This document shows, piece by piece, positions 3,523 to 38,757 of a stretch of DNA of 64,000 nucleotides (the stretch's first letter is position 1; the number at the start of each line of letters is the position of its first letter). The notes below the pieces were generated by a model. That model did no database searches, was not told the DNA's origin, and was given only the letters and a program-made list of their open reading frames with translations. Both the position numbers and the translations under genes were made by a program. The DNA lies in the NCBI GenBank assembly GCA_003221005.1, contig QHTZ01000081.1, forward strand, positions 32,001 to 96,000. Reading direction: 5' to 3'. Source of the DNA: Gemmatimonadota bacterium (GTDB taxonomy: Bacteria > Gemmatimonadota > Gemmatimonadetes > Gemmatimonadales > GWC2-71-9).

Positions 3523-4883
3523 GGCGCGGCACGCCGCGTGACGCTCACTCCCTCGAGCAGCACCGACGGCGTGTTGCGCGCGCCGTACCAGCGGCGGTCG
3601 CTCCCGAACCCGGCGATGCGCTGCAACAGGTCGTAGCTGTTGCCCGCGACGGCCGCGTCCTTCACGCGACCGACGATCTCACCGCGCCTGATGCGATACG
3701 CGAGCGCCACCGGATGGCTGAACGCCCCGCCGCTCACGTTCCCCTGCCCTACCCCGATGAGGTCGTCGACCAGAAGACCGTCGGCGATGTCGCCGAGCAA
3801 ACCGCCACCCAACTGTAGGGGCACGGCATGCCATGCCCCTACGGAATACCCGTCCCCCTTCCCCCGTCCCTCGTCCCCTATGATGAGGTTGGTATATCCG
3901 ACGACAGGCTTCGAAAAAATGGCGCGCTGCCCGTGCCCCGTGCTCATCGTCCCGGCACGGGCCGCGGTCTCGAGATCATAGATGAACCCCTGCACGACGC
4001 CACGTTGCACGAGGCACGTGGCGCGCGACGGCACGCACTCGTCGTCCACGGGCCGTGACGACGCTCTGCCGGGAGCGAGCGCGTCGTCCGTGAGCGAGAA
4101 CGCTGGATCGAACATCTGTTCGCCGACCTTCGCGGCGAGGGGCGAGATGCCCTGCAGCACGGCCTTGCCCGAGAGGGCCTGGGTGAGGGGCAGGAGCACC
4201 GCGGTAAGTCCGGCGGGCGTGAATATGACCGGGAGCGCGCCTTCGGGCGGGTCGGTGACCTTGAGGGCAAGATCGAGGCGCGTATTGACCGACTGTGCGA
4301 TGCGAGCGACGTCGGCCGCGCTCGGGAGATCGGCGCCCTCGAACGCGTCGCCGAGCACGAGCACGTCGTCGCCCGCGACGCGCCACAGGTCGGCGCTCAC
4401 CACGACGCCGGTCGATTGGTAGCTCGAGTCGGCGCCGGCCGAGTTCGCCACCCGCGTCTCGGCCAGCTCGCGCTCGACGCTGACGTTGACCTGGCACCCA
4501 TCGCGCGCGAGCTGTGCGACGAGCCCGGCCCCGAGCTCGATGAGGGCATCGAGCGACGCGCCGGCTGCCGCAGCGAAGAACGTAGGGACGTGGGGGAGCG
4601 GGGTGCGCGACGGAAACGCGAGCGTCAGCTCCGCGCCCAGCTCGGCCGAGGCGAGCGCGCGGCTCACCAACTCGTCAGGCGCGGCAGCGACGGCGGTCGA
4701 GCCCGCCACGCCGACCCGCCCGCCGCTCACGACCCGCAGGTTGACGCCCGCCTCTTCCGTCACCCCCGCGGCCTTTAGGCGGCCGAATTCGAACGCGACG
4801 GACGTCCGCTCCGACCGGCGCCACAGGGCGTCCGCGGTGCCCGCCCCGCGGCGCCGCGCCTGCTCGAGCAGCCGCTCGATCAC
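3519..4883 (-). CDS. TldD/PmbA family protein (PmbA/TldE-like, non-catalytic subunit)
   Basis: GTG start at 4883 overlaps tldD stop; PVDDEC, IYDLETAARAG, STGHG, AVAGN; no HExxxH. Confidence 0.85.
   Translation of the reverse strand: MIERLLEQARRRGAGTADALWRRSERTSVAFEFGRLKAAGVTEEAGVNLRVVSGGRVGVAGSTAVAAAPDELVSRALASAELGAELTLAFPSRTPLPHVPTFFAAAAGASLDALIELGAGLVAQLARDGCQVNVSVERELAETRVANSAGADSSYQSTGVVVSADLWRVAGDDVLVLGDAFEGADLPSAADVARIAQSVNTRLDLALKVTDPPEGALPVIFTPAGLTAVLLPLTQALSGKAVLQGISPLAAKVGEQMFDPAFSLTDDALAPGRASSRPVDDECVPSRATCLVQRGVVQGFIYDLETAARAGTMSTGHGQRAIFSKPVVGYTNLIIGDEGRGKGDGYSVGAWHAVPLQLGGGLLGDIADGLLVDDLIGVGQGNVSGGAFSHPVALAYRIRRGEIVGRVKDAAVAGNSYDLLQRIAGFGSDRRWYGARNTPSVLLEGVSVTRRAAP
3815..3842. 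repeat. GTAG-type REP-like palindrome inside pmbA
   Basis: GTAGGGGCACGGCATGCCATGCCCCTAC, near-perfect inverted repeat starting with GTAG. Confidence 0.7.
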
Positions 4884-6265
4884 GCGGCGTCCGGGACGTC
4901 GCCCCCGACCAGCGCTTCCTCGATCCGCACGTGGGGCGCGCCCTCGGTCACCGGCAGAGGGAACTGCCCGCCCTTGCCGCAACCCCCGCCCATCTCGTTC
5001 CAGCGGAAGTCGCCGGCGATGCGCTCGATGCGATCCAGGGTCTGGAACAGGTTGCCCGCGATCACCACGTCCTTCACGAGCTCCGCCACCTGGCCGTCGC
5101 GGATCATGTGCCCATAGGCGGCGGTGAAGGAGAAGTTCTCGAGCAGCGTCTGGCCGCCGAAGGCGCTGCACGCGTAGACGCCGAGCGGGATGTCCTTGAT
5201 CAGGTCGGCGAAGCTGCCGCGCCCGTTCGCGATGTAGGTGTTGGTCATCCGGACGATGGGGGGATAGCGGAACGAGGTGGCGCGGGCGTTGCCGGTGGGG
5301 TGCTCCCCCAGCGCCGCCGCCGTCTCACGCGAATGCAGCCGGCCGACGAGCACCCCTGCGCGGATCAACGGCGTGTCCTGTGTGGGCGTGCCCTCGTCGT
5401 CGAACGGCAGGGTGCCCCGCAGCCCGGCCGCGGCCCCGTTGTCCCCCACGTTGAGGAGCGGTTTCCCGAAGCGGCGGCCGAGCGTCATCATCTCGCGCGC
5501 CTGGGGATTCTCGTAGATGAAGTCGGCCTCGGAGAGATGGCCGAATGCTTCATGGATGAACACGCCGGCGAGCTCGGGGTCGAGCACGACCGGGTAGGTG
5601 CCGCCCTTCACCCGCGGCGCGTCCAGCAGCGCCACGGCGCGCTCCGCGGCCCGGCGGAATCCCGCCGCGCGGTCCTGCACGCTGCGCCAGCCGCGCCGCA
5701 GGCCGAACGACTCGAGACCTTTCTCGATGATCCCATCGCGCCGCGCCACGGCGCTCCCCGACACCGTCACCTCGGGACGGAGCTCGTGCAGCACGGTCCC
5801 CTCCGAGTTGACGTACCAGTACTCCGTCACTGCGTCGTGGTAGCTGGCCACGGTATCCACGACGCGGTCGCTGACGGCGAGCATTTCGCTGTTGTAGGCC
5901 TCGATCAACCGCTTCTTCTCGGCGAGGGGGACGCCGCGCACGTCGCCGTCCAGGTCGAGGACAGCGTCGGCCTGGTGCGGCGGAACCTCGGCGAGGCGGA
6001 TCGGGCGCTCCAGGCGCACGGCCCGGGAAAGCTCACCCGCCCGCGCGACCATCGCAGGGAGCTGGTCGAGCGAGGTGAACGCCGCGACGCCCCAGCCGCA
6101 GCCGCGATGCAGCGTGCGCACGAAACCGCCCTGGTCCTCGCTCGCGGTGGCCGCTTCGAGCCGCCGCCCCCGGAAGGAGACGGCCGAGGTCCAGGTGCGT
6201 TCGAGGCGGATTTCGGTGAAGTCGGCGCGCGACGCGGCCAGCGCGTCGGTGAGGCGGTCCTTCAC
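4880..6265 (-). CDS. tldD: TldD metalloprotease
   Basis: HEAFGH metal motif, PFDDEG, GNAR, IVRMTNTY, GCGKGGQ; GTG 6265 coupled to upstream stop. Confidence 0.9.
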   Translation of the reverse strand: MKDRLTDALAASRADFTEIRLERTWTSAVSFRGRRLEAATASEDQGGFVRTLHRGCGWGVAAFTSLDQLPAMVARAGELSRAVRLERPIRLAEVPPHQADAVLDLDGDVRGVPLAEKKRLIEAYNSEMLAVSDRVVDTVASYHDAVTEYWYVNSEGTVLHELRPEVTVSGSAVARRDGIIEKGLESFGLRRGWRSVQDRAAGFRRAAERAVALLDAPRVKGGTYPVVLDPELAGVFIHEAFGHLSEADFIYENPQAREMMTLGRRFGKPLLNVGDNGAAAGLRGTLPFDDEGTPTQDTPLIRAGVLVGRLHSRETAAALGEHPTGNARATSFRYPPIVRMTNTYIANGRGSFADLIKDIPLGVYACSAFGGQTLLENFSFTAAYGHMIRDGQVAELVKDVVIAGNLFQTLDRIERIAGDFRWNEMGGGCGKGGQFPLPVTEGAPHVRIEEALVGGDVPDAA

Positions 6266-6819
6266 TCCGCCAGTTCCCTCAGCTTCTCCGCGTAGTCGGG
6301 ACGCATGACGATCTCTCCGCCGACGATGATCTCGCGGTCCCAGGGGAGGATGATGAAGTTTTCGGTCTCGAGGGCGTAGAAGTCCGGCTTGTAGTCGCCG
6401 GTCCGGAACGACACGGCGGTTTTCACGGCCGCGGGCTTCAGGTCCCGCACCGCGGCGAGCGCGAGCTTCATGGTGTCGCCCGTGTCGCAGGTCTCGTCCA
6501 CGATGAGCACTCGCTTGCCGGTGACGATCCGCGGCGGCCCGGCGATGACAGTGGGGCGGGCGCCGCTCGCCTCGCGCGTGATCGCGATCGACGCGAAGTC
6601 GCGCTGCAGGATGCTCGCCACCACGGCGCCCGGAATCACGCCCGCCTTGGCGATCCCGACCACCAGTTCCGGGTCGTACTCGCGGAAGATCCGGAGCGCG
6701 AGCGCCCGGCACAGCTCGCCGAAGAAGGGCCAATCGACCTGGAGCACGCCGTGCGGCGGCAGGCGGCCGCCGCGGGTGGTGGGCGTGGTCGGCACCGTGG
6801 GTCTGCGGGTGGGAGGCAT
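6262..6819 (-). CDS. Type I phosphoribosyltransferase
   Basis: VVGIAKAG, PRPP motif VLIVDETCDTGDT, C-terminal FIILPWD. Confidence 0.88.
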   Translation of the reverse strand: MPPTRRPTVPTTPTTRGGRLPPHGVLQVDWPFFGELCRALALRIFREYDPELVVGIAKAGVIPGAVVASILQRDFASIAITREASGARPTVIAGPPRIVTGKRVLIVDETCDTGDTMKLALAAVRDLKPAAVKTAVSFRTGDYKPDFYALETENFIILPWDREIIVGGEIVMRPDYAEKLRELAE

Positions 6820-10447: not shown

Positions 10448-11071
10448 CTAGCTCTTCTCCCCCGCCCACAACCCCTGCCCCGCCGCGAGCTGCCGGATCC
10501 CGGGCGGCGGCACGACATCCTCCCGCTCGACCACGAACCGCCGTCCTCTGAGCAGCACGCGCTGGCCTTCCTCGAACCACGGCGGAGCCGCCACGTCCGC
10601 CCCCAGGACGACGCCGCGCGCCATCGCCGGACGCAGCGGAATCACTCCCGCCGCGCGCACCAGGCTGAGCACCGGCAATTCCTCCGCATCGCTCGGCGCA
10701 TTCACGCCGATGAAGTGAACCCCACCCCTCAGTCCCGCTAGGCCCACCGCGTGCCGCACTCCGTCACCCACGAGCACGATGAAGCCGCCGGGGCCGGAGA
10801 GATCGAGGAGGGCCTGGAGGGTCTGTGCGTCATCGGGACGAAGGACGGGGGACGGGGGACGGGTGGCGGCGGGGCCACGTCCCACGTCCCTCGTCCCCCG
10901 TCCCGTGAAATCGACGACCCCGTGCACAATCGGATACTCCCGCTTGCAAATGGGACATCCCACGATCCCCGAGCGTACCATCCGTCCGAGCATCTCGCCC
11001 GTCGACAACACGAGGACGCCGAGCTCGTGCGGCTCGGGGCAGCGCAGCATCTCCGTCAACTCGATGTGCAT
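10448..11071 (-). CDS. Trm112-like Zn-ribbon fused to degenerate methyltransferase-like domain
   Basis: N-term LRCP...GCPICKREYPIVHGVVDF; C-term IPLRP...EGQRVLLRGRRFVV. Confidence 0.7.
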   Translation of the reverse strand: MHIELTEMLRCPEPHELGVLVLSTGEMLGRMVRSGIVGCPICKREYPIVHGVVDFTGRGTRDVGRGPAATRPPSPVLRPDDAQTLQALLDLSGPGGFIVLVGDGVRHAVGLAGLRGGVHFIGVNAPSDAEELPVLSLVRAAGVIPLRPAMARGVVLGADVAAPPWFEEGQRVLLRGRRFVVEREDVVPPPGIRQLAAGQGLWAGEKS

Positions 11072-16482: not shown

Positions 16483-16520
16483 GGGGGACGAGGGAGGTGG
16501 GACGGGGGACGGGTAAGACA

Positions 16521-23832: not shown

Positions 23833-25791
23833 TCAGTATGGTTCGTCCGACAGCGGGTTGAGGGGCGGCACCGCCTCGCGCGCGCGTCCGGCGGGCTCGG
23901 CCGCCGCGACCCGCGCCCCTAGCGCCCGCCGGAAGAACGCGAGCGGGTCTTCGGGCCGGGCGCGCCGTGTCGCGGCGAGCGCGCGGCGCACGTCATCCGG
24001 CGCGCGGTCGACGATGAGGTCGTGCACCGCGTTCGGCCGGATCCTGCGGTCGAGCCTGAGGAGCTGGCGCACGACCGCGTCGGCGAACGGCAGATCGGCA
24101 GCGGGTGGGAACCGCTCGACGCCGTCCCGCCCGCGCAGCACCGCGGGCCGCGGGAACCGCACGAAGATCGGTTGCGTGAAATGCGGGTGGCGCACCATCA
24201 GCTCGCCGATGGGCAGGGTGGCGAGCTTGATCTTGGTGGCGGGCGAGAGCACCTGGTAGCCGGGCGTGGCCAGCTCGTCGTAGTCCATACGCCCGTAGAC
24301 GATCGTGCCGGCGTTCCCCACCACTCGCCGATGTACCTGCGAGCGGAACTGCTCGGCGCCGAAGAGCACGAGCCCAAGGTAACGCCCGCGCTCCGAGATA
24401 TCGAGCAGCATCTTGCGGACGTACGTGTCCGGCCCGTCGGCCGGCGCGTACTTGTTGAGCTCGTCCACGAACACCACGACGGCCTCGACGCCGAGATCGC
24501 GCCGCTCGAGGTGCTCGCGCAGCTGCGACACGACGCGCGCAAACACGAGGTCCTGGCCAAGCGGATCCACGTTCGCCAGATCGACCACGTACACGGCCCG
24601 GTCCTCGAACGCGCCCCACGGCAGGTCGTTCGAGGGGCCGTCGTCGGTGACGAGCCCCTTGCAACGGGTCGAGATGTTGGAGAGCCGGTTCCGGACCTTG
24701 CGCATCGTCGCGATGTGATGAGTGCGCCACATGTCGCTGCGGCCTGCCAGCTCGAGCCCGTCGAAGATGGCGCGGAACAGCGCATCCAGGTCTGCGAACG
24801 TCTGGACCCGATGGGTGCCGCCGAAGCCATCGTCGAACTCCCGGTTGAGCACCCGGTCGGCGAGGAAGTCGATGAATGCGTCGGCCTTGGCGTCGATGTC
24901 GTCGCGGTTCAGGAGCACTTCGGCGAAGTCGAGCACCTCCTGGAGGCCCCACACGAGGGGCTCGACGGCGCCCACGAGGTCGGGATGGGTGCGCAGCGTA
25001 TTGAGGTTCACGCCGTCCGCCTTGAAGGGCGCGTAGTAGCGCACCCGGCGGAACGGCTGCGGCGCGACCCCGAGCCGCTCGTAGCGGCGGCGGTCCGCGT
25101 CGTCGAGGCTCCCCGGCTGGTCGAGGAAGCAGAGGTCGGGACCCTTCACGTTGAAGCACACGGCGGCAATCCGTCCCTTGTGCGCCGGGAAGTGCTGGAA
25201 GATGGACGACAACAGGAACTCGACGGCGCTCGTCTTGGTCGCGAGTCCAGAGACGCCCGAGATGTTGAGGTGAGCCGCTTCAGGACCGTGCAGGAAGTCC
25301 GCGTCCAGGTAGACCGGCGCCTCGAGCCCTCCCGAGGTGTACAGCCCCACCGGGATGGCGGTGGGGGTGGCGCCCTGGAGGTAGGTCTCCATGCGGAGGG
25401 CGCGGGCCACGTCAGGGTCGGTCGCCACGAACACGCGGCCGAGCGGGACCGGCTGCAGCGGCTCCTCGGGCTCCTGGCGCAGCACGGCCGCGGTCCACAG
25501 CCGAATCTCCTGGCGCACCGTGGGGCTGTCAGCTGCGCGAGCGGGATCTCCGTCGGCGCCGACCACGTCGTGCAGTGGGGTGGCAAGGTCGGAGTAGGCG
25601 AACCCATCCGTCACAACCCCGAAGACCACCCTTCCCTCTTCCCCCGTCCCACTTCCCTCGACCCTGACAATCGCCCCGATCCCGATCGCCGTCTCGGTAG
25701 CGGTCCAGAAGTGGAATTGGTGCGGCGTCGCCGGCTTGAGCTCGGTGGCGACCACCCGGCCGACCGGCTCCGGCGCCCGTTTCTGGATCAC
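23833..25791 (-). CDS. herA: HerA-type helicase/translocase ATPase
   Basis: N-terminal HAS-barrel-like region, variant Walker A SGVSGLATKTS, FNVKG, Walker B VFVDELNKY, ERGR..G. Confidence 0.85.
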   Translation of the reverse strand: MIQKRAPEPVGRVVATELKPATPHQFHFWTATETAIGIGAIVRVEGSGTGEEGRVVFGVVTDGFAYSDLATPLHDVVGADGDPARAADSPTVRQEIRLWTAAVLRQEPEEPLQPVPLGRVFVATDPDVARALRMETYLQGATPTAIPVGLYTSGGLEAPVYLDADFLHGPEAAHLNISGVSGLATKTSAVEFLLSSIFQHFPAHKGRIAAVCFNVKGPDLCFLDQPGSLDDADRRRYERLGVAPQPFRRVRYYAPFKADGVNLNTLRTHPDLVGAVEPLVWGLQEVLDFAEVLLNRDDIDAKADAFIDFLADRVLNREFDDGFGGTHRVQTFADLDALFRAIFDGLELAGRSDMWRTHHIATMRKVRNRLSNISTRCKGLVTDDGPSNDLPWGAFEDRAVYVVDLANVDPLGQDLVFARVVSQLREHLERRDLGVEAVVVFVDELNKYAPADGPDTYVRKMLLDISERGRYLGLVLFGAEQFRSQVHRRVVGNAGTIVYGRMDYDELATPGYQVLSPATKIKLATLPIGELMVRHPHFTQPIFVRFPRPAVLRGRDGVERFPPAADLPFADAVVRQLLRLDRRIRPNAVHDLIVDRAPDDVRRALAATRRARPEDPLAFFRRALGARVAAAEPAGRAREAVPPLNPLSDEPY

Positions 25792-26774
25792 GAAGCCGCT
25801 TTGGGGAGGCGGGAGGCGGGGGACGGGAGCAGGTCCCGCGGGGCGCGCGCTCTCAGATACGTCTCCACGTCATGAATGGGATAAAGTAATCGATCCCACC
25901 GCGCATCGGGGGTCGAGACCGGCGCGCGCTCGCGCGCGAGCCAGCCGCTCACGCCCGACGCCGCCGTGACCGTTGCGGGATGGGCGCGCGCCTCGACCCG
26001 CAGCAGGCCGAACAACAGGTCGTTCCCCTCCCACGGCCACAGCCGCAGGTACCACGAGTAAACCTCGTGGTGCGCCCGACCCCGCGGGCGGAACACCGAG
26101 GTGCGATGCAGCGCCGGAAGCGTGAGGGCGCGCGTGAGGGCGTCGCCCTCGAAGTACTGCGCGCCGTGGCTCTTGATCACGCCGAGCGCGCGCGGATGCC
26201 CGGCGAGGCGGGCGGACTCGGAGAGCACACCGTCCACGACGAACCACTCTTCGGCGCCGAGCGACGCGAGGTGCCGCTCCGCCAGGTCCTTCTCGAGCGC
26301 GACGCGGGCGTTCTCGACGGCGCGCCGTGCTGCCTCGAGCGCCGGCCCAGGCTGGCCCAGGGCCTCCTGAGGCACGTCCACCAGGTCCACGCCGCTCGCC
26401 TCGAGCGCCGCGCGCACGCCGGGACGCAGCGCGGCCACGGCTGCCGCGTGAAACTCCCGCGTCGTCTCCCCGACGACGCGCAGCCGGCGGTCTCCAGTCC
26501 GGCGTCGCACGGCGGACGCCACGTACGCCCGCACGATGGGCACGGCGCCGTCGTAGTAGGTGACCTTCCAGCGCTGGATACCGTCGAGGAAAGAGGCTGT
26601 CGCGGGGGGGGCAATGACGCCGCCGGGATCGAGTGGGTGGATCCGGACCTCCGTGTCCTCGACCAGCTCGGCCCCGGCGACCTCGCTGAGCTCGGTACGC
26701 CCCAGGCTCTCCTCCGGGACGTGCGACGCCCGCACGGCCCCTGCCGCCACGATCGCGTCCGCCCAGCTGCGCAT
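25788..26774 (-). CDS. nurA: NurA-like 5'-3' nuclease
   Basis: FLDG, VVDG, GVIKSH, late PIHDVE; coupled to herA. Confidence 0.75.
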   Translation of the reverse strand: MRSWADAIVAAGAVRASHVPEESLGRTELSEVAGAELVEDTEVRIHPLDPGGVIAPPATASFLDGIQRWKVTYYDGAVPIVRAYVASAVRRRTGDRRLRVVGETTREFHAAAVAALRPGVRAALEASGVDLVDVPQEALGQPGPALEAARRAVENARVALEKDLAERHLASLGAEEWFVVDGVLSESARLAGHPRALGVIKSHGAQYFEGDALTRALTLPALHRTSVFRPRGRAHHEVYSWYLRLWPWEGNDLLFGLLRVEARAHPATVTAASGVSGWLARERAPVSTPDARWDRLLYPIHDVETYLRARAPRDLLPSPASRLPKAAS

Positions 26775-28091: not shown

Positions 28092-29266
28092 ATGCAACGG
28101 CGGGAGTTCGTCTCGGTGGCTGGGGCCCTGGTCCTGGCGGCGACGGAAGGACGGAAGGACGGAAGGGGGTGGCGGGGACGTTCCGTCCTTCCGTCGTTCC
28201 GTCCTTCCGTCGCCTCTCAGGAACCAGCCCTCTCGCCCGAAGTCTTCTCCCGCCGCCTCGCGCGCGCGCAGGCGGAGCTCAAGACCCGCAAGTGGGACTT
28301 CCTCATCGCCACGCCAGGCACGACCTACCTCTATTTCACCGGCTACAACCCGGGCCGGAGCGAGCGGCTCATCGCGCTCGTCATCCCCGCGAGCGGCGAG
28401 CCCGCGATCGTGTGCCCGTCGTTCGAGGTGGACCGCATCAAGCGCCATGCGACGGCGCTCGACATCACGGGGTGGGAGGAGCCGGCGAATCCCTATAAGC
28501 TGGTCGAGCGCGTGGTCCGCGCGCGCAAGCCCCGGGCTCCCGGGACGATCGCGCTCGAGTCCTCGACCGCGTTCGGATCGTATCTGGGCATCAAGGACGC
28601 GCTTGGGGGCTGGAAGTTTGAAGATGCCGCCGCCATCACCGACCGGCTGCGGATCATCAAGTTTCCCGAGGAGATCGCGCTGATCCGCCGCGCGATCGCG
28701 ATCACCGAGGACGCGATGGCGGCCACCTTCGCGCAGCTCGCCGTGGGCGTAAGCGAGCACGACGTGGCGGGGGTGCTCGAGCGGGAGATGGAGCGGCGCG
28801 GCGGAGAGGGGGGCGGCGGGCTGGTGCAGTTCGGGCCGTCGAGCGCCCTGCCGCACGGCGGCCCCGCGAGCGTCACGCTCGAGCGCGAGATGGTGGTGCT
28901 GATCGATTGCGGCTGTCGCGTCTCGGGCTATACGTCCGACATCACGCGCACGATCTGGTTCGGCGACCATTGGGCCGGCCCCTCGTCACCCCATGTGAGG
29001 AAATGGATCGCGCCGCGCGCAAGGTGATCAGCGACGCCGGCTTCGGCCGTAACTTCACCCACCGCCTCGGCCACGGAATCGGCCTCGACGGCCACGAGCC
29101 GCCGTATCTCGTCGAAGGAAACGAGGTCCACCTCGAGCCAGGGATGGTGTTCACGCTCGAGCCAGGGGTGTACCAAACTGGGAAATTCGGAGTGCGGATC
29201 GAGGATGACTGTCTGATGACGGAGAACGGAGTTGAGGTCCTGAGTCACCGACCGTCCAAACTCTGA
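28092..29266 (+). CDS. Xaa-Pro (M24) peptidase with Tat-like signal, split near 28970
   Basis: MQRREFV; IDCG, SDITRT in one frame; HRLGHGIGLDGHE, EPGVY, GVRIED in another. Confidence 0.88.
28141..28212. repeat. Octamer tandem-repeat hairpin in peptidase N-terminus
   Basis: (GACGGAAG)3 ... (TTCCGTCC/G)4. Confidence 0.85.
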
Positions 29267-29631
29267 CGGGGACGAGGGACGCGGGACGGGGGACGCGTGG
29301 TGCCGAGGCGGCGGCGTAGGCTATAGATGAGGCCGATCAACAGCCCCACGACCTGATTGCTGAGTACCAGCGCCTCGTCCACCGATTTCGCGGGCGCAAG
29401 TTCTAGGTCTCGCACCAATTCGAGATGCGTGCAAAGCTCCGTACCGGAACCGAGGGCAATCCCGAGCGCGTAGCCTTCAGCGATGTTCGCAGGAATCGCC
29501 GCCGCCGCTCGCCGGATCTGATCCGCGAGTCCATAATGGCGACTGAGAGGTGGCTCGAGCGTGAGGCGATAGGCGACGCGCGCGACGGCGCGACCGCGCG
29601 TCCACGCCTGCAAAGAATCGAGCTTTCGCAC
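29245..29631 (-). CDS. Four-helix-bundle protein (23S rRNA IVP/Avd-like family), short internal deletion
   Basis: SLQAW, YGLADQIRRAAAAIPANIAEGY, IALGS..EL..HL. Confidence 0.85.
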   Translation of the reverse strand: MRKLDSLQAWTRGRAVARVAYRLTLEPPLSRHYGLADQIRRAAAAIPANIAEGYALGIALGSGTELCTHLELVRDLELAPAKSVDEALVLSNQVVGLLIGLIYSLRRRLGTTRPPSRVPRPRQSLDGR

Positions 29632-29728
29632 GAATAGAAGTTGGAATGCCGCCTGCCATGGTAGGAGTCATTCCGCCGCATCCATGGTCCTTTCGCCGCA
29701 ACACTCGTCCCCCGTCCCTCGTCCCCCG
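29267..29728. repeat. Inverted heptamer-repeat arms flanking the four-helix-bundle gene
   Basis: GGGGACGAGGGACGCGGGACGGGGGACG (about 29267-29295) versus CGTCCCCCGTCCCTCGTCCCCCG (29706-29728). Confidence 0.75.
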
Positions 29729-29731
29729 CCC

Positions 29732-30919
29732 CTAGTCTCCTAGCTTCTTCGCAAACCCCACGATCTTCTCCAGCGCCCGCTCGATGTCCCCCGTCGCCGC
29801 CGCGTAAGACAATCGCACGTAGCGATCGTCGCCGAACGCCGAGCCGGGGACCAGCGCCACCCCCGACTCGGTAATGAGACGGGTGCAGAACTCCGTGCCG
29901 CTCGAGCCCCCGAGCGAGTCTACGCGGAAGAAAAAGTAGAACGCGCCCAGCGGATCCACGAACTCCACGCCTGGCAAATCGCGGCGGAAGCGGCCGACCA
30001 CGAGGTCGCGCCGCTTGCGGAACTCCGCTACCATCCGCATCACGTCCTGCTCCACCCGCTCATCGCCCAGGGCGGCGGCCGCGGCGAACTGCGCCGGGTG
30101 ATTCGCCCCGGTGGTGGTATGTGACTGCAGCGCAGCCATGGCCTTGGCGATCTTGCCCGGCGCGAGCGCGATGCCGATGCGCCACCCCGTCATCGCATAC
30201 GCCTTACTGACCCCGTAGATCACGACGACGCGCTCGAGCAGCTCGTCCGGAAGATCGAGGAACGACGGGGCCGGTCCCGGACCGTAATGGATGCGCCGGT
30301 AAATCTCGTCGGTGATCACCCACACCTTGCGCTCCACCGCCCACTGCGCGATCGCCTTGATCTCGGCGTGCGTGTAGACGCCGCCGGTCGGATTGCAGGG
30401 CGAGCACAGGATCAACCCCTGGGCCCCGGGCACCACGCGCTCGAGATCGCGCACCCCCACCTTGAGACTCCACTCCGGATCGCCGGGCACGAGCACGGGC
30501 CGCGCGCGCGTGAGGTGCACGATCTGGGGATACGACACCCAGGCAGGAGCAGGGATCGCCACCACGTCCCCCGGGCCGAACAGACTGAAGCAGACGTTGA
30601 ACAGCGACTGCTTCGAGCCGTTGGAGATGACGACGTGATCGGCGTTCACGGGCCGCCCGCCTGAGAGCAGCGAGAGATGCTTCGCCGCCGCGGCACGGAG
30701 CTCGAGGATCCCCTCGTTCGCCGGGTAGTGGGTCTTCCCCTCCCGAATCGCCCGCACGCCGGCGTCGGCGGGAATCGACGGGGTGGGGAAATCCGGCTCG
30801 CCCGCCCCGAGGTCGATCACATCCTCTCCCGCGGCGCGACGCCGCTTCGCCTCCTGGGAGATGGCGATCGTGGCGGATGTCTCGAGATGCTGAAGGTTGG
30901 GCGACAGCCCCTGCGACAT
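29732..30919 (-). CDS. PLP-dependent aminotransferase class I/II (aspartate aminotransferase-like)
   Basis: GEPDF, PCNPTG, DEIY, SKAYAMTGWRIG, PGSAFG. Confidence 0.93.
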   Translation of the reverse strand: MSQGLSPNLQHLETSATIAISQEAKRRRAAGEDVIDLGAGEPDFPTPSIPADAGVRAIREGKTHYPANEGILELRAAAAKHLSLLSGGRPVNADHVVISNGSKQSLFNVCFSLFGPGDVVAIPAPAWVSYPQIVHLTRARPVLVPGDPEWSLKVGVRDLERVVPGAQGLILCSPCNPTGGVYTHAEIKAIAQWAVERKVWVITDEIYRRIHYGPGPAPSFLDLPDELLERVVVIYGVSKAYAMTGWRIGIALAPGKIAKAMAALQSHTTTGANHPAQFAAAAALGDERVEQDVMRMVAEFRKRRDLVVGRFRRDLPGVEFVDPLGAFYFFFRVDSLGGSSGTEFCTRLITESGVALVPGSAFGDDRYVRLSYAAATGDIERALEKIVGFAKKLGD

Positions 30920-30990
30920 GAGCGACGTGCTCCGTGGCGGACGATGGCAATATCCGCTCGCGCGGTCGCGACGCGCAACTAGTCGCGAGG

Positions 30991-32368: not shown

Positions 32369-32416
32369 AACCAGCATCCTTCAGGTGTGACGTCTGACAG
32401 GTGTGACGTCTGACGT

Positions 32417-32710
32417 CTACTTGCCTCTGTTATTCACCGCCATTTTCAGCTGCTTGCCGGCGCGGAACGCAGGTGCGATCGACGCTTTGATCTGGATCAC
32501 GCCGCCCGTCTTGGGGTTGCGGCCGGCGCGCGCGGCGCGCTTGCGCGCCTCGAAGTTCCCGAAGCCCGTGATCTGCACCTTCGCTCCCTTCTTCAATTCC
32601 GCGGCGATGATGCCCTTGTCGTCGAACAGAGCCTCGATCGTCCGGCCCGCATCGGCCTTCGACATCTTCGTCCGCATCGCCAGCGCCGTGGTCAGCTCGG
32701 CTTTGTTCAC
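32417..32710 (-). CDS. hup: HU family DNA-binding protein
   Basis: MNKAEL, GFGNF, RAARAGRNPKTG, PAFRAGK. Confidence 0.97.
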   Translation of the reverse strand: MNKAELTTALAMRTKMSKADAGRTIEALFDDKGIIAAELKKGAKVQITGFGNFEARKRAARAGRNPKTGGVIQIKASIAPAFRAGKQLKMAVNNRGK

Positions 32711-32952: not shown

Positions 32953-33558
32953 ATGCTCAACGGCGCCCGCCCCGGCTGGATCGAGGTCATTACCGGCGTG
33001 ATGTTCAGCGGCAAGAGCGAAGAGCTGATCCGCCGGGTGCGCCGCGCCGTGATCGCCCGCAAGCAGATCCAGGTCTTCAAGTCCCACCTCGACGCCCGGT
33101 ATGCCGGGCTCTACAACGTGGCGACGCATGACGGCCTCACGGTCGAAGCCGCGCCGGTGGACTCTGCCGAGGAAATCATGCGACAGGTCCGGCCCGCGAC
33201 CGAGGTGGTCGCGGTGGACGAGGCGCAGTTCCTGGATCACGGGATCGTCGGCGTGGCGAACGCCCTCGCGGACCGCGGCGTTCGGGTGATCCTCGCCGGC
33301 ACCGACACGGACTTCCGGGGCGAGCCGTTCGGCGCGATGCCGACCCTGATGGCGATCGCCGAGATCGTCGACAAGTTTCAGGCGATCTGCGTCGTGTGCG
33401 GCGGGCCCGCCACGCGCAACCAGCGGCTGGTGGACGGCCAGCCCGCACAGTGGAACAGCCCGGTCATTCTGGTGGGCGGGCGCGAATCGTACGAGGCCCG
33501 CTGCCGCCACTGTCATCGCGTGCCGAGGATGGATGAGGATCAAACTGCGCTACTCTGA
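32953..33558 (+). CDS. tdk: Thymidine kinase
   Basis: [31 protein letters not shown]. Confidence 0.97.
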
Positions 33559-33636
33559 ACGCGGAACGCGGAACGCGGAACGGGGAATCGACGCTGGCTG
33601 GTTTGTTCCGCGTTCAACCTTCCGCGTTCCGCGTTC
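33557..33636. repeat. Heptamer tandem-repeat hairpin between tdk and coaE
   Basis: (GAACGCG)3 ... TTCCGCGTTC..TTCCGCGTTCCGCGTTC directly before ATG. Confidence 0.85.
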
Positions 33637-37996: not shown

Positions 37997-38757
37997 AGCA
38001 CCTCCTGGTGGACCCCGTGGGCCGCCGCGGGTGGGTCAACATGTCCTTCGACCAGGCCCTGCTCGACGACGCCGACCGGTTGGGAACCGCCACACTCCGG
38101 CTCTACCGCTGGGATCCCCCCTGCCTCTCCCTCGGCCGCAACGAATCCACGCGCCACTACGATCGCGCCCGGATCGCACAACTCGGAATAGACGTCGTGC
38201 GGCGGCCCACCGGCGGGCGCGCGGTGTGGCACGAGCACGAAGTCACCTACGCCGTCGCCGCGCCCGTGGATAGGTTCGGCTCCCTGCGTGCCGCCTACTG
38301 CACCATCCATCAGAGGCTCGCGGCGGCGCTGCGATCCCTCGGCGCCGATGCCACCCTCGCACCCACCCGCCCAACCGCCAAACCGCCTAACCGGCTCTCC
38401 GCCTGCTTCTCACACCCAGTCGGCGGCGAGGTGCTGATCGCCGGGTGCAAAGTCGTCGGCTCCGCCCAGCTGCGGCAGGGCGATGCCTTTCTGCAACACG
38501 GCTCGATTCTGCTGGGAGGGGCGCAGGAGACGATTGAAGCTGTCATCCGTCAGCCGTCAGCTATCAGACATCAGACTTCAGACGTCAGAACCGCGACGAC
38601 GCTCTCGGCTGCGCTCGGTCGATCGGTAACGTTTGAGGAGGTTGCCAACGCCATCATGAGCACGTGGGGCGACGGCTTCAGCTCTACCGCCCCCTACCGC
38701 CCCTTACCGTCCCTTACCGCCCTTTTCTCAGACCCTTCCTGGACCTGGCGTCGCTAG
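37993..38757 (+). CDS. Lipoate-protein ligase A/LipM family
   Basis: [33 protein letters not shown]. Confidence 0.9.

Follow-up and report, generated by a model that had tools for sequence, protein, structure and literature searches.

In a 64,000-nucleotide stretch of the genome of a Gemmatimonadota bacterium (contig QHTZ01000081.1, positions 32,001 to 96,000; this whole stretch is called the window below), a gene encoding a small four-helix-bundle protein of the PF05635/TIGR02436 family lies between two inverted arrays of tandem heptamers, the element extending from about position 29267 to about position 29734. The same layout recurs around relatives of this gene in other phyla. We favour, with a probability of roughly 0.55, the reading that the window element is a module of the type of the intervening sequences (IVSs) of ribosomal RNA, located outside rRNA, in which the loop would be the PF05635 gene and the stem would consist of two arms, about 28-35 nt long and with about four heptamers each. 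The window has a G+C content of 69% and contains housekeeping genes; the close homologues of the proteins encoded in it bear the name Gemmatimonadales. The element and the genes bordering it are the following.

29698 to 29732, minus strand: 5' arm on the sense strand, G-rich, four tandem GGGRCGN units plus a short non-repeat extension; it begins right after the aminotransferase stop codon.
29632 to 29697, minus strand: leader of 66 nt between the 5' arm and the GTG start, with no match to a sigma-70-like promoter.
29245 to 29631, minus strand: four-helix-bundle protein gene, 128 codons, with a GTG start confirmed by homologues.
29269 to 29303, minus strand: 3' arm on the sense strand, C-rich, four tandem CGTCCCN units, within the 3' end of the open reading frame (ORF) and 2 nt from the stop codon of the M24 peptidase gene.
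29732 to 30937, minus strand: class I/II aminotransferase gene, upstream of and co-directional with the bundle gene; left border of the syntenic site.
28092 to 29266, plus strand: M24 (Xaa-Pro) peptidase gene, convergent; right border of the syntenic site, broken here.

The two arms were recovered by an inverted-repeat search as 35-nt segments that are 86% complementary with 394 nt between them, and Tandem Repeats Finder resolved each of them into its four heptamers and extension (GGGACGN on the left and CGTCCCN on the right of the plus strand). They form the closing stem in the minimum-free-energy RNA fold of positions 29240 to 29745 (z = -2.67; 1 of 100 shuffles folds as well). With at most one mismatch allowed, the two-unit motif GGGACGNGGGACG is present 25 times in the window, whereas shuffled sequences contain it 2.33 ± 1.48 times (largest value 7; none of 100 shuffles reaches 25). 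The ORF runs through the left arm, and its last 17 or so residues are translated repeat; the C-terminal tails of homologues in our alignment (alignment A1) are likewise translated heptamers, which gave a first hint that the arm is part of the gene unit. In the leader, an in-frame ATG at 29685 is followed by a TGA after five codons. A promoter and terminator scan of positions 29000 to 30000 returned no promoter-like site, and its sole terminator-like site is located inside the peptidase gene, none being inside the element.

To place the window copy among its relatives, genome contigs were scanned once with a profile of alignment A1, and of the 602 candidate stretches at least 580 were relatives. 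From these we retained the best 80 loci, one genome per species and with up to 10 kb of flank per side (about 20 kb per genome), which make with the window 81 loci from more than 12 phyla. These 80 loci are those closest to the window protein (best match among them 69% identity), and the distant Bacteroides-type and Avd branches are barely sampled (one Riemerella locus). Since the loci were picked by protein similarity only, their flanks are an unbiased sample. In 65 of the 80, the best ungapped complementary segment between upstream and downstream flanks scores above the 95th percentile of permuted flank pairs (14.5). With a detector that calls an array where 28 nt contain 17 or more of 21 lag-7 matches, and with arrays called complementary when their consensus heptamers show at most one mismatch in seven, period-7 arrays were present upstream of 53 of the 81 genes, downstream of 60, on both sides of 46, and on both sides with complementary units of 42. 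The corresponding figures for 1516 random pseudo-genes placed in the same loci were 50, 53, 4 and 2. The detector is conservative and misses imperfect arrays, e.g., in L002, L008, L010 and L012; a stricter finder gave a period of 7 in 108 of 111 arrays, with a median of 4.2-4.3 copies. Carriers are found in Cyanobacteriota, Alphaproteobacteria, Planctomycetota, Chloroflexota, Acidobacteriota, Verrucomicrobiota, Nitrospirota, Armatimonadota, a Treponema and candidate-phyla bins. At four candidate-phyla loci (L061, L067, L068 and L074) the copies are not in rRNA, and only tRNAs were found there.

A profile search of all loci detected four further bundle genes in the flanks. The one in L020 has its own complementary arrays, with a heptamer unlike that of the first gene 9 kb away; arrays lie on both sides of the one in L056, and in L063 and L009 the 3' array, at least, is present. 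In 69 of 73 loci, as in each of the eight tight gene-less hairpins listed, whichever strand is read 5' to 3' presents the G-rich array before the C-rich one; this fixed handedness belongs to the palindrome and not to the orientation of the gene. The G-rich arm of the window and most 5' arrays are of the GGG-plus-four type, with four G-runs of at least three and short loops, i.e., the sequence pattern of a putative G-quadruplex; heptamers without GGG occur at several loci (e.g., ATGTGAA in L028 and GCAGCTA in L052), and the G-run pattern is therefore not universal.

A second sample came from a plasmid collection, in which tblastn found 24 records; 12 of these, spread over taxa, were fetched and their flanks inspected by eye. 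Inverted arrays lie on both sides of the gene in 10 of the 12 loci (Gemmatirosa, with an octamer, Azospirillum, Riemerella, Geminocystis, Picosynechococcus, Nostoc C052, Stanieria, Anabaena 90, Nostoc punctiforme and Aulosira). The two exceptions are L084 (Nostoc PCC 7120), without a 5' arm and with an ISL3 transposase gene just upstream, and L089 (Pseudanabaena galeata), with long direct arrays: the heptamers in the flanks of 701-1060, about 16 and about 10 in number, are closely related and lie on one strand. At the Nostoc punctiforme locus (L091, plasmid pNPUN01), a C-rich array downstream of 683-1105 seems to split the bundle ORF, the usual C-terminal helix being coded beyond the array; the ORF as annotated could represent a rearranged copy or a fusion. 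In three cyanobacterial plasmids (L086, L089 and L090), the bundle gene is co-directional inside a CRISPR-cas operon, once in the cas10/cmr2-cmr3 interval and twice in the cas6-cas4 interval.

At the plasmid locus L082 (Azospirillum lipoferum 4B plasmid AZO_p2, 13692-15355), a 23S rRNA gene (Rfam LSU, 1029 bits) is interrupted by an unannotated ORF of the family, which makes this copy a genuine 23S rRNA intervening sequence. Its arms consist of four heptamers each (GAKGACR type) that pair in the fold (z = -10.1), and this heptamer resembles one reported upstream of the Coxiella IVS ORF. In Coxiella, the IVS has an S23p ORF, its terminal inverted repeats make a stem of 28 bp in whose middle RNase III cuts were mapped, and two or three tandem heptameric repeats, their number depending on the strain, precede the ORF (PMC4990558). 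ORF-bearing IVSs are also cited there for Leptospira (PMC4990558). It is the organization of L082 and of the Coxiella IVS that suggests that the window element is the same kind of module outside rRNA. The window copy shares with these elements the family ORF as loop and terminal inverted repeats of about 28 bp. It does not lie in a 23S or 16S rRNA helix, being flanked by the aminotransferase and peptidase genes; in Rfam searches no family reached its gathering threshold in the window, only a sub-threshold chance hit fell in 29100-29900, and no rRNA was found in the window.

One could object that the arms are ordinary hairpin repeats, or a bidirectional terminator of the two convergent genes, into whose loop a bundle gene happened to land; the genome is indeed rich in short tandem arrays of several kinds, some of them gene-less hairpins, and there is no other terminator-like site between the convergent genes. 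We give this explanation hardly any credence, because the layout occurs at 42 of 81 gene loci and at only 2 of 1516 control positions, because it recurs without convergent flanks, in operons and in rRNA, and because the identity of the heptamer tracks the protein (see below).

The order aminotransferase gene, bundle gene, convergent M24 peptidase gene is common to six other Gemmatimonadota loci (L001, L002, L003, L004, L014 and L075), whose bundle proteins are 58-69% identical, which indicates that the element has long resided at this site. The heptamer is GGGACGN in the window, L001 and L002, GGGAAGN in L004 and L075, and a mixture in L014; the 5' arm has been lost in L003. Across these orthologous loci, the two arms change their heptamer in step. 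In L004, they form a perfect 31-nt inverted repeat, variable seventh positions included, and RNAalifold applied to five orthologues predicted an outer helix of 28 pairs, 7 of which keep pairing through changes on both sides. A target-site duplication was searched for by eye only, in the flanks of the syntenic relatives, and none was convincing. The window element is old and appears to be vertically inherited at its site.

The earlier note on this DNA had described the gene and its inverted arms as one unit, located at 29245 to 29728 between convergent housekeeping genes, with the ORF as the loop of arms able to fold. The recurrence around relatives, in genomes and in plasmids, bears out the unit, the closing stem and the covariation of the arms agree with the fold, and the convergent neighbours are as described; only the span shifts, to the limits given in the first paragraph. 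The note had also supposed a mobile unit, and in this respect the window locus goes against it: the element has not moved recently, since the same gene lies between the same genes in six relatives. The gene is fixed there, and these relatives do carry the repeats.

An explanation at the DNA level nevertheless deserves attention, in which the arrays would be the terminal inverted repeats of a mobile element, the bundle protein a factor acting in trans in its mobility or maintenance, and the gene-less arrays its non-autonomous copies, in the manner of RAYT (REP-associated tyrosine transposase) genes with their REPs (repetitive extragenic palindromes) and REPINs (REP doublets forming hairpins). 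Inverted arms at both ends of the gene are a family-wide feature, the same heptamer and protein are common to different phyla, and related copies occur on two plasmids of one strain (L033 and L034). Copies within rRNA (L082) and within cas operons (L086, L089 and L090) also fit such an element, as do the visibly damaged copies, 5 of 81 (the window, L015, L067, L072 and L075), and the presence of bundle genes among the strain-unique genes of an Arthrospira strain (PMC8700078). Essentially the same view goes back to an idea of 1993 about IVS ORFs, cited in PMC4990558. We consider this explanation unlikely on balance: the protein has no nuclease or recombinase domain (Pfam and TIGR profiles) and no transposase gene is found near the window locus, the window and its six relatives occupy the same site despite 58-69% protein identity, and the flanks of the syntenic relatives, read by eye, gave no target-site duplication. 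The gene-less arrays discussed below bear on it as well.

The ORF at 29245-29631 matches PF05635 with 63.1 bits (cut-off 33.8; positions 2-105 of the 106 of the profile) and TIGR02436 with 61.4 bits (cut-off 24). Profiles of this family are the only ones that match the protein, and they cover nearly all of its 128 residues. The AlphaFold2 model computed with alignment A1 has a mean predicted local distance difference test (pLDDT) score of 88.7 and contains four helices (residues 2-23, 33-52, 56-75 and 81-111), with the repeat-encoded C-terminal tail disordered (pLDDT 54-57). Foldseek comparisons of this predicted model retrieved Xanthomonas XCC0516 (2gsc; template modelling (TM) scores 0.71/0.80) and BT_0352 (2rld; TM 0.72/0.79), and also Avd of diversity-generating retroelements (DGRs), alone (4dwl) and in the DGR ribonucleoprotein (8ub7), with TM scores of 0.68/0.78 at 15-18% identity. 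The 2gsc entry holds five chains, and chain letters up to E appear among the hits for 2rld, 4dwl and 8ub7. The relation of the family to Avd, and its association with CRISPR adaptation modules, have been described (PMC10053308, PMC10910872); the family assignment and the Avd link made in the earlier note stand. The family proteins are basic, with a median isoelectric point (pI) of 9.2 and 63 of 77 above pI 8. In the window, tblastn found no second bundle gene, a weak match at about 2383-2508 falling in a transporter gene, and a search of the phage collection gave no match to the bundle protein.

The window protein lacks part of the core: an in-frame deletion of 10 codons at about 29460/29461 (between Gly57 and Ile58), just before helix 3, removes residues that are present in all 29 other homologues of alignment A1. 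The deletion is flanked by two short similar stretches, which makes slippage a plausible cause. The model folds nonetheless; the window copy is probably decaying.

A quick maximum-likelihood tree of 77 proteins (four truncated rows being excluded) groups the heptamer classes by protein clades that cross phyla, some of the cross-phylum cases being metagenome bins in which contamination or binning error is possible. For instance, GGGAGTN is found in four cyanobacteria, a Terriglobia bin and a Hyphomicrobiaceae bin, and GGGTCTN or GGGTTTC in Hydrogenedentota, Nitrospiraceae and Caldilineaceae, whilst Nostoc has members of two protein clades with two different heptamers. Among pairs from different phyla (39 loci), the heptamer is shared, with at most one mismatch, by 1% at protein identities below 35%, by 41% at 55-70% and by 50% above 70%; among pairs of the same phylum at 45-55% identity, it is common to only 5%. 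The Mantel correlation is r = -0.357 (0 of 2000 permutations as low) and, for cyanobacteria alone, r = -0.56 (0 of 2000). Gene and arms thus appear to be inherited and transferred together.

This pattern could also be read as that of binding sites, the pairing of the arms being secondary: the bundle protein, probably a pentamer, would bind four to five heptamers, regulate its own gene and act on the gene-less arrays. Such a role would suit a repeat whose identity follows the protein lineage and not the host, including two paralogues 9 kb apart on one Nostoc contig, each with its own heptamer. It would also suit the match between four to five units per array and the five chains per entry of the solved relatives, the basic character of the proteins, and the presence of Avd in an RNA-protein complex (according to the titles in the Protein Data Bank (PDB)). 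In Geobacter metallireducens, 49 elements of four tandem GGGACCG, located between and inside genes, were ascribed to an 'unidentified global regulator' (PMC2700814). In Xanthomonas, a four-unit GGGAATC array overlaps the annotated start of XCC0516, the crystallised family member, and is listed without comment among the 186 such arrays of the genome (PMC4692102 and its supplement file 2). The binding model, however, does not require the two arrays to be complementary, leaves unexplained the compensatory changes, including the matched variable positions of L004, and could owe its lineage signal to co-inheritance alone; many gene-less arrays are moreover intragenic, in coding sequence, which makes a regulatory role less evident. 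We judge this account of the element quite unlikely.

According to the favoured reading of an IVS-type module, the element sits in the spacer between the aminotransferase gene and the convergent peptidase gene instead of in an rRNA helix. It would probably be transcribed by read-through from outside, through both arms, given that it contains no promoter-like site and that its G-rich arm directly follows the aminotransferase stop codon; an internal promoter would have little space in 15 of the 42 loci, where fewer than 40 nt separate the 5' array from the start codon. The paired arms would give about 30 bp of double-stranded RNA to be cut by RNase III, as in rRNA IVSs, and the cut would detach the RNA of the bundle gene from the host message, so that the insertion would do no harm. 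The bundle protein, basic and with solved relatives that comprise five chains, would probably recognize its own heptamer arrays, and this would explain why the sequence of the repeat stays tied to the protein lineage.

Several observations weigh against this reading. The arrays are direct and not inverted at two loci (L089 and the Solibacteraceae locus L054, which resembles it), and one arm is absent at others (L003 and L084). Mismatches between the arms carry no strand-specific RNA signature, those of the G:U type in the sense strand numbering 64 and those of the A:C type 65 (73 loci); pairing at the DNA level, with which a mobile element is compatible, or conversion of one arm by the other explains this balance equally well or better. 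RNase III cutting of the stem has been shown for rRNA copies only and would extend to the window by analogy. In a second syntenic group of Gemmatimonadota, the upstream gene is apparently divergent and a -10-like motif is close to the start codon (as read in the printed flanks), so that some copies may own a promoter that leaves the 5' arm out of the RNA. Recognition of the arrays by the protein is suggested by co-inheritance alone, which shared descent could equally yield. Finally, neighbouring genes are co-oriented with the bundle gene at 54 of 76 loci upstream and 50 of 75 downstream, numbers that we judge uninformative, since adjacent bacterial genes are usually co-oriented in roughly two thirds or more of cases. 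The RNA-module reading is not exclusive of a mobile element or of protein-binding sites.

The heptamer of the window element is also found away from the gene, at the following sites.

10835 to 10904: gene-less hairpin of the same heptamer (G-type array, 11-nt gap, C-type array), in frame in the linker of a Trm112-like ORF (10448-11071, minus strand).
3849 to 3878: single array of the same heptamer, C-type on the plus strand, in frame inside an ORF of the PmbA/TldD family.
16483 to 16513: single array of the same heptamer, G-type on the plus strand, 1 nt past the stop codon of an M13 peptidase gene; an unrelated GC-rich hairpin follows the array.
25631 to 25659: degenerate mixed array of CTTCCCN and CGTCCCN; a possible partner, C-first, is located 145 nt off at 25804-25829, both being in an ORF without Pfam family.

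The four gene-less sites listed in the earlier note thus exist; only that at 10835-10904 has both arms, and it and the array at 3849-3878 lie inside coding sequences. The latter array is joined to a small perfect hairpin (about 3820-3845), and the whole segment 3820-3878 is translated in frame as an insertion within the match to the PmbA/TldD C-terminal domain. For the Trm112-like protein, 1463 homologues were found and 18 of them aligned; a variable, repeat-derived linker stands at the same place in all 18, with differing residue patterns, and a few of them lack one half. This rules out a recent insertion of the 10835-10904 hairpin. Like the gene-carrying element, the hairpin is old, with the repeat turning over in place; of these two sites, the ones that were followed, neither was empty in any relative seen.

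Of 69 gene-less arrays in the flanks of the 80 loci, 17 carry the heptamer of the neighbouring bundle gene, where free permutation gives 5.6 ± 2.5. Once arrays closer than 1 kb are excluded and the permutation is restricted to phylum groups, the match falls to 12 of 63 against 6.8 ± 2.4, a value reached in 52 of 2000 permutations, which points only weakly to a genome-specific relation between the gene-less arrays and the neighbouring gene. For the proposal of non-autonomous derivatives, made in the earlier note, the case is accordingly a weak one, the single hairpin that was followed being old and fixed. The four additional sites in the window could be counted in favour of a mobile element; the fixed Trm112-like hairpin with its repeat turnover in place, the weakness of the within-phylum match, and the occurrence of inverted array pairs around pieces of ordinary genes count against it. 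Four further G-first array pairs, 280-900 nt apart, were found in the loci, one of which holds a bundle gene (L056) and three of which do not (L065, L024 and, around the RarA-like segment, L010).

Several array pairs enclose other sequences. In L065, complementary heptamer arrays at 5572-6444, each with an inner GC-rich hairpin, surround a 207-codon ORF without Pfam family, about 2 kb from a bundle gene with nearly the same heptamer. In L024 (5363-5891), a pair surrounds the N-terminal part of a TMEM260-like gene (Pfam). From the translation only, pairs were also read around segments of GTPase-like and RarA-like genes in L010 (4922-5107, 8475-9234 and 11298-11597), and around the last 48 or so codons of a short-chain dehydrogenase-like gene in L013 (4940-5151).

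Other repeat units form more arrays and hairpins in the window, and several of these arrays are in frame within coding sequences. At 28142-28211, an octamer hairpin (GACGGAAG three times and its complement four times) follows in frame right after the twin-arginine-like signal peptide of the M24 peptidase; orthologues of this peptidase have a variable segment at this position, which in L004 contains an array of a different unit (L004 11502-11539). The same peptidase gene is interrupted at about 28960-29020 (plus strand), where some 22 codons found in five of five aligned orthologues are gone and a frameshift leaves two ORFs; either the gene is a true pseudogene or the assembly is at fault. At 33557-33636, four GAACGCG units and their complement form a hairpin that takes up the interval from the stop codon of the thymidine kinase gene to the start codon of the dephospho-CoA kinase gene. 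An ORF for an LplA/B-type lipoate ligase contains three tandem arrays, at 38362-38393 (8 nt), 38538-38589 (7 nt) and 38684-38722 (10 nt), and the complement of its 7-nt unit (CGTCAGA type) is found again some 6 kb off, at 32382-32418.

Beyond the window, we tentatively suggest as a possibility that PF05635 proteins are the cognate partners of tandem-heptamer hairpin repeats across many phyla, each protein lineage with its own heptamer, the framed gene being a 'master' copy and the gene-less arrays its dependants or targets. If this were true, the dependants would include the GGGAATC arrays of Xanthomonas, the four-heptamer elements of Geobacter, the heptamer repeats of cyanobacteria and the in-frame hairpins of the window, the rRNA IVSs would be copies that landed in rRNA, and the whole would be a repeat-plus-partner system with a reach like that of REP/RAYT, built on a non-enzymatic RNA- or DNA-binding pentamer. 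Two questions of about three decades' standing, the role of the proteins encoded by 23S rRNA IVSs and the over-representation of short tandem heptamers in bacterial genomes, are tied together and become directly testable, since bundle genes are regularly framed by complementary four-unit arrays and the repeat travels with the protein lineage. Two oddities of annotation also find an explanation: the proline-, serine- and arginine-rich tails of family proteins and the variable linkers of housekeeping proteins are translated repeat arrays. As the family is related to DGR Avd and found in CRISPR-cas operons, a defined nucleic-acid target would be of wider interest.

The nearest known systems each share part of this organization. 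In REP/REPIN-RAYT systems, a single-copy gene, coding for an HUH-type transposase, is flanked by inverted short repeats that are also dispersed without the gene, often as hairpin pairs. The window resembles them in having a gene flanked by inverted repeat copies and four gene-less sites of the same heptamer, one of them a full hairpin; it differs in that the gene encodes a small helical bundle without catalytic domain instead of an HUH-type transposase, and in that the repeats are tandem heptamers instead of unique palindromes. Rickettsia palindromic elements are palindromes inserted in frame into coding genes, as are the gene-less hairpin arrays of the window in the linkers of ordinary proteins; unlike them, the window units are tandem heptamers, at sites that are old and with repeat turnover in place. 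DGR Avd (4dwl, 8ub7) has the same fold as the window protein, five-chain entries and, according to the PDB titles, a complex with RNA and reverse transcriptase, whereas no reverse-transcriptase domain was detected with Pfam in the 55 window ORFs scanned, and the identity is only 15-18%.

Heptamer arrays without a gene have been described in Xanthomonas (GGGAATC, 70-75 inverted pairs) and in Nostoc (GGGGAYT) (PMC4692102), and heptamer direct repeats in Beggiatoaceae (PMC4679880). Like the window arrays, those of Xanthomonas, Nostoc and Geobacter consist of about four GGG-plus-four units, are inter- and intragenic, often form inverted pairs, and keep their position while length and sequence vary; in the available parts of these papers they are described without a gene partner, whereas the window arrays frame a specific gene family (PMC4692102, PMC2700814). 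The main text of PMC4692102 does not contain the term 'helix bundle', and PMC2700814 does not contain 'four-helix'.

The closest relatives remain the ORF-bearing 23S rRNA IVSs, which have the same family in the loop, a terminal stem of about 28 bp and heptameric repeats, four per arm in L082; they lie in an rRNA helix whereas the window element lies between protein-coding genes, and RNase III cutting belongs to the rRNA copies. In the available part of its description, the stem of the Coxiella IVS is presented neither as heptamer arrays nor as a family-wide rule (PMC4990558). The window element is therefore not as undescribed as the earlier note had held, ORF-bearing IVSs with a 28-bp stem and heptamers, as well as gene-less arrays, having been published. 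Our full-text search of the literature, which found these parts described separately, returned no report linking PF05635 genes with flanking heptamer arrays as a general rule.

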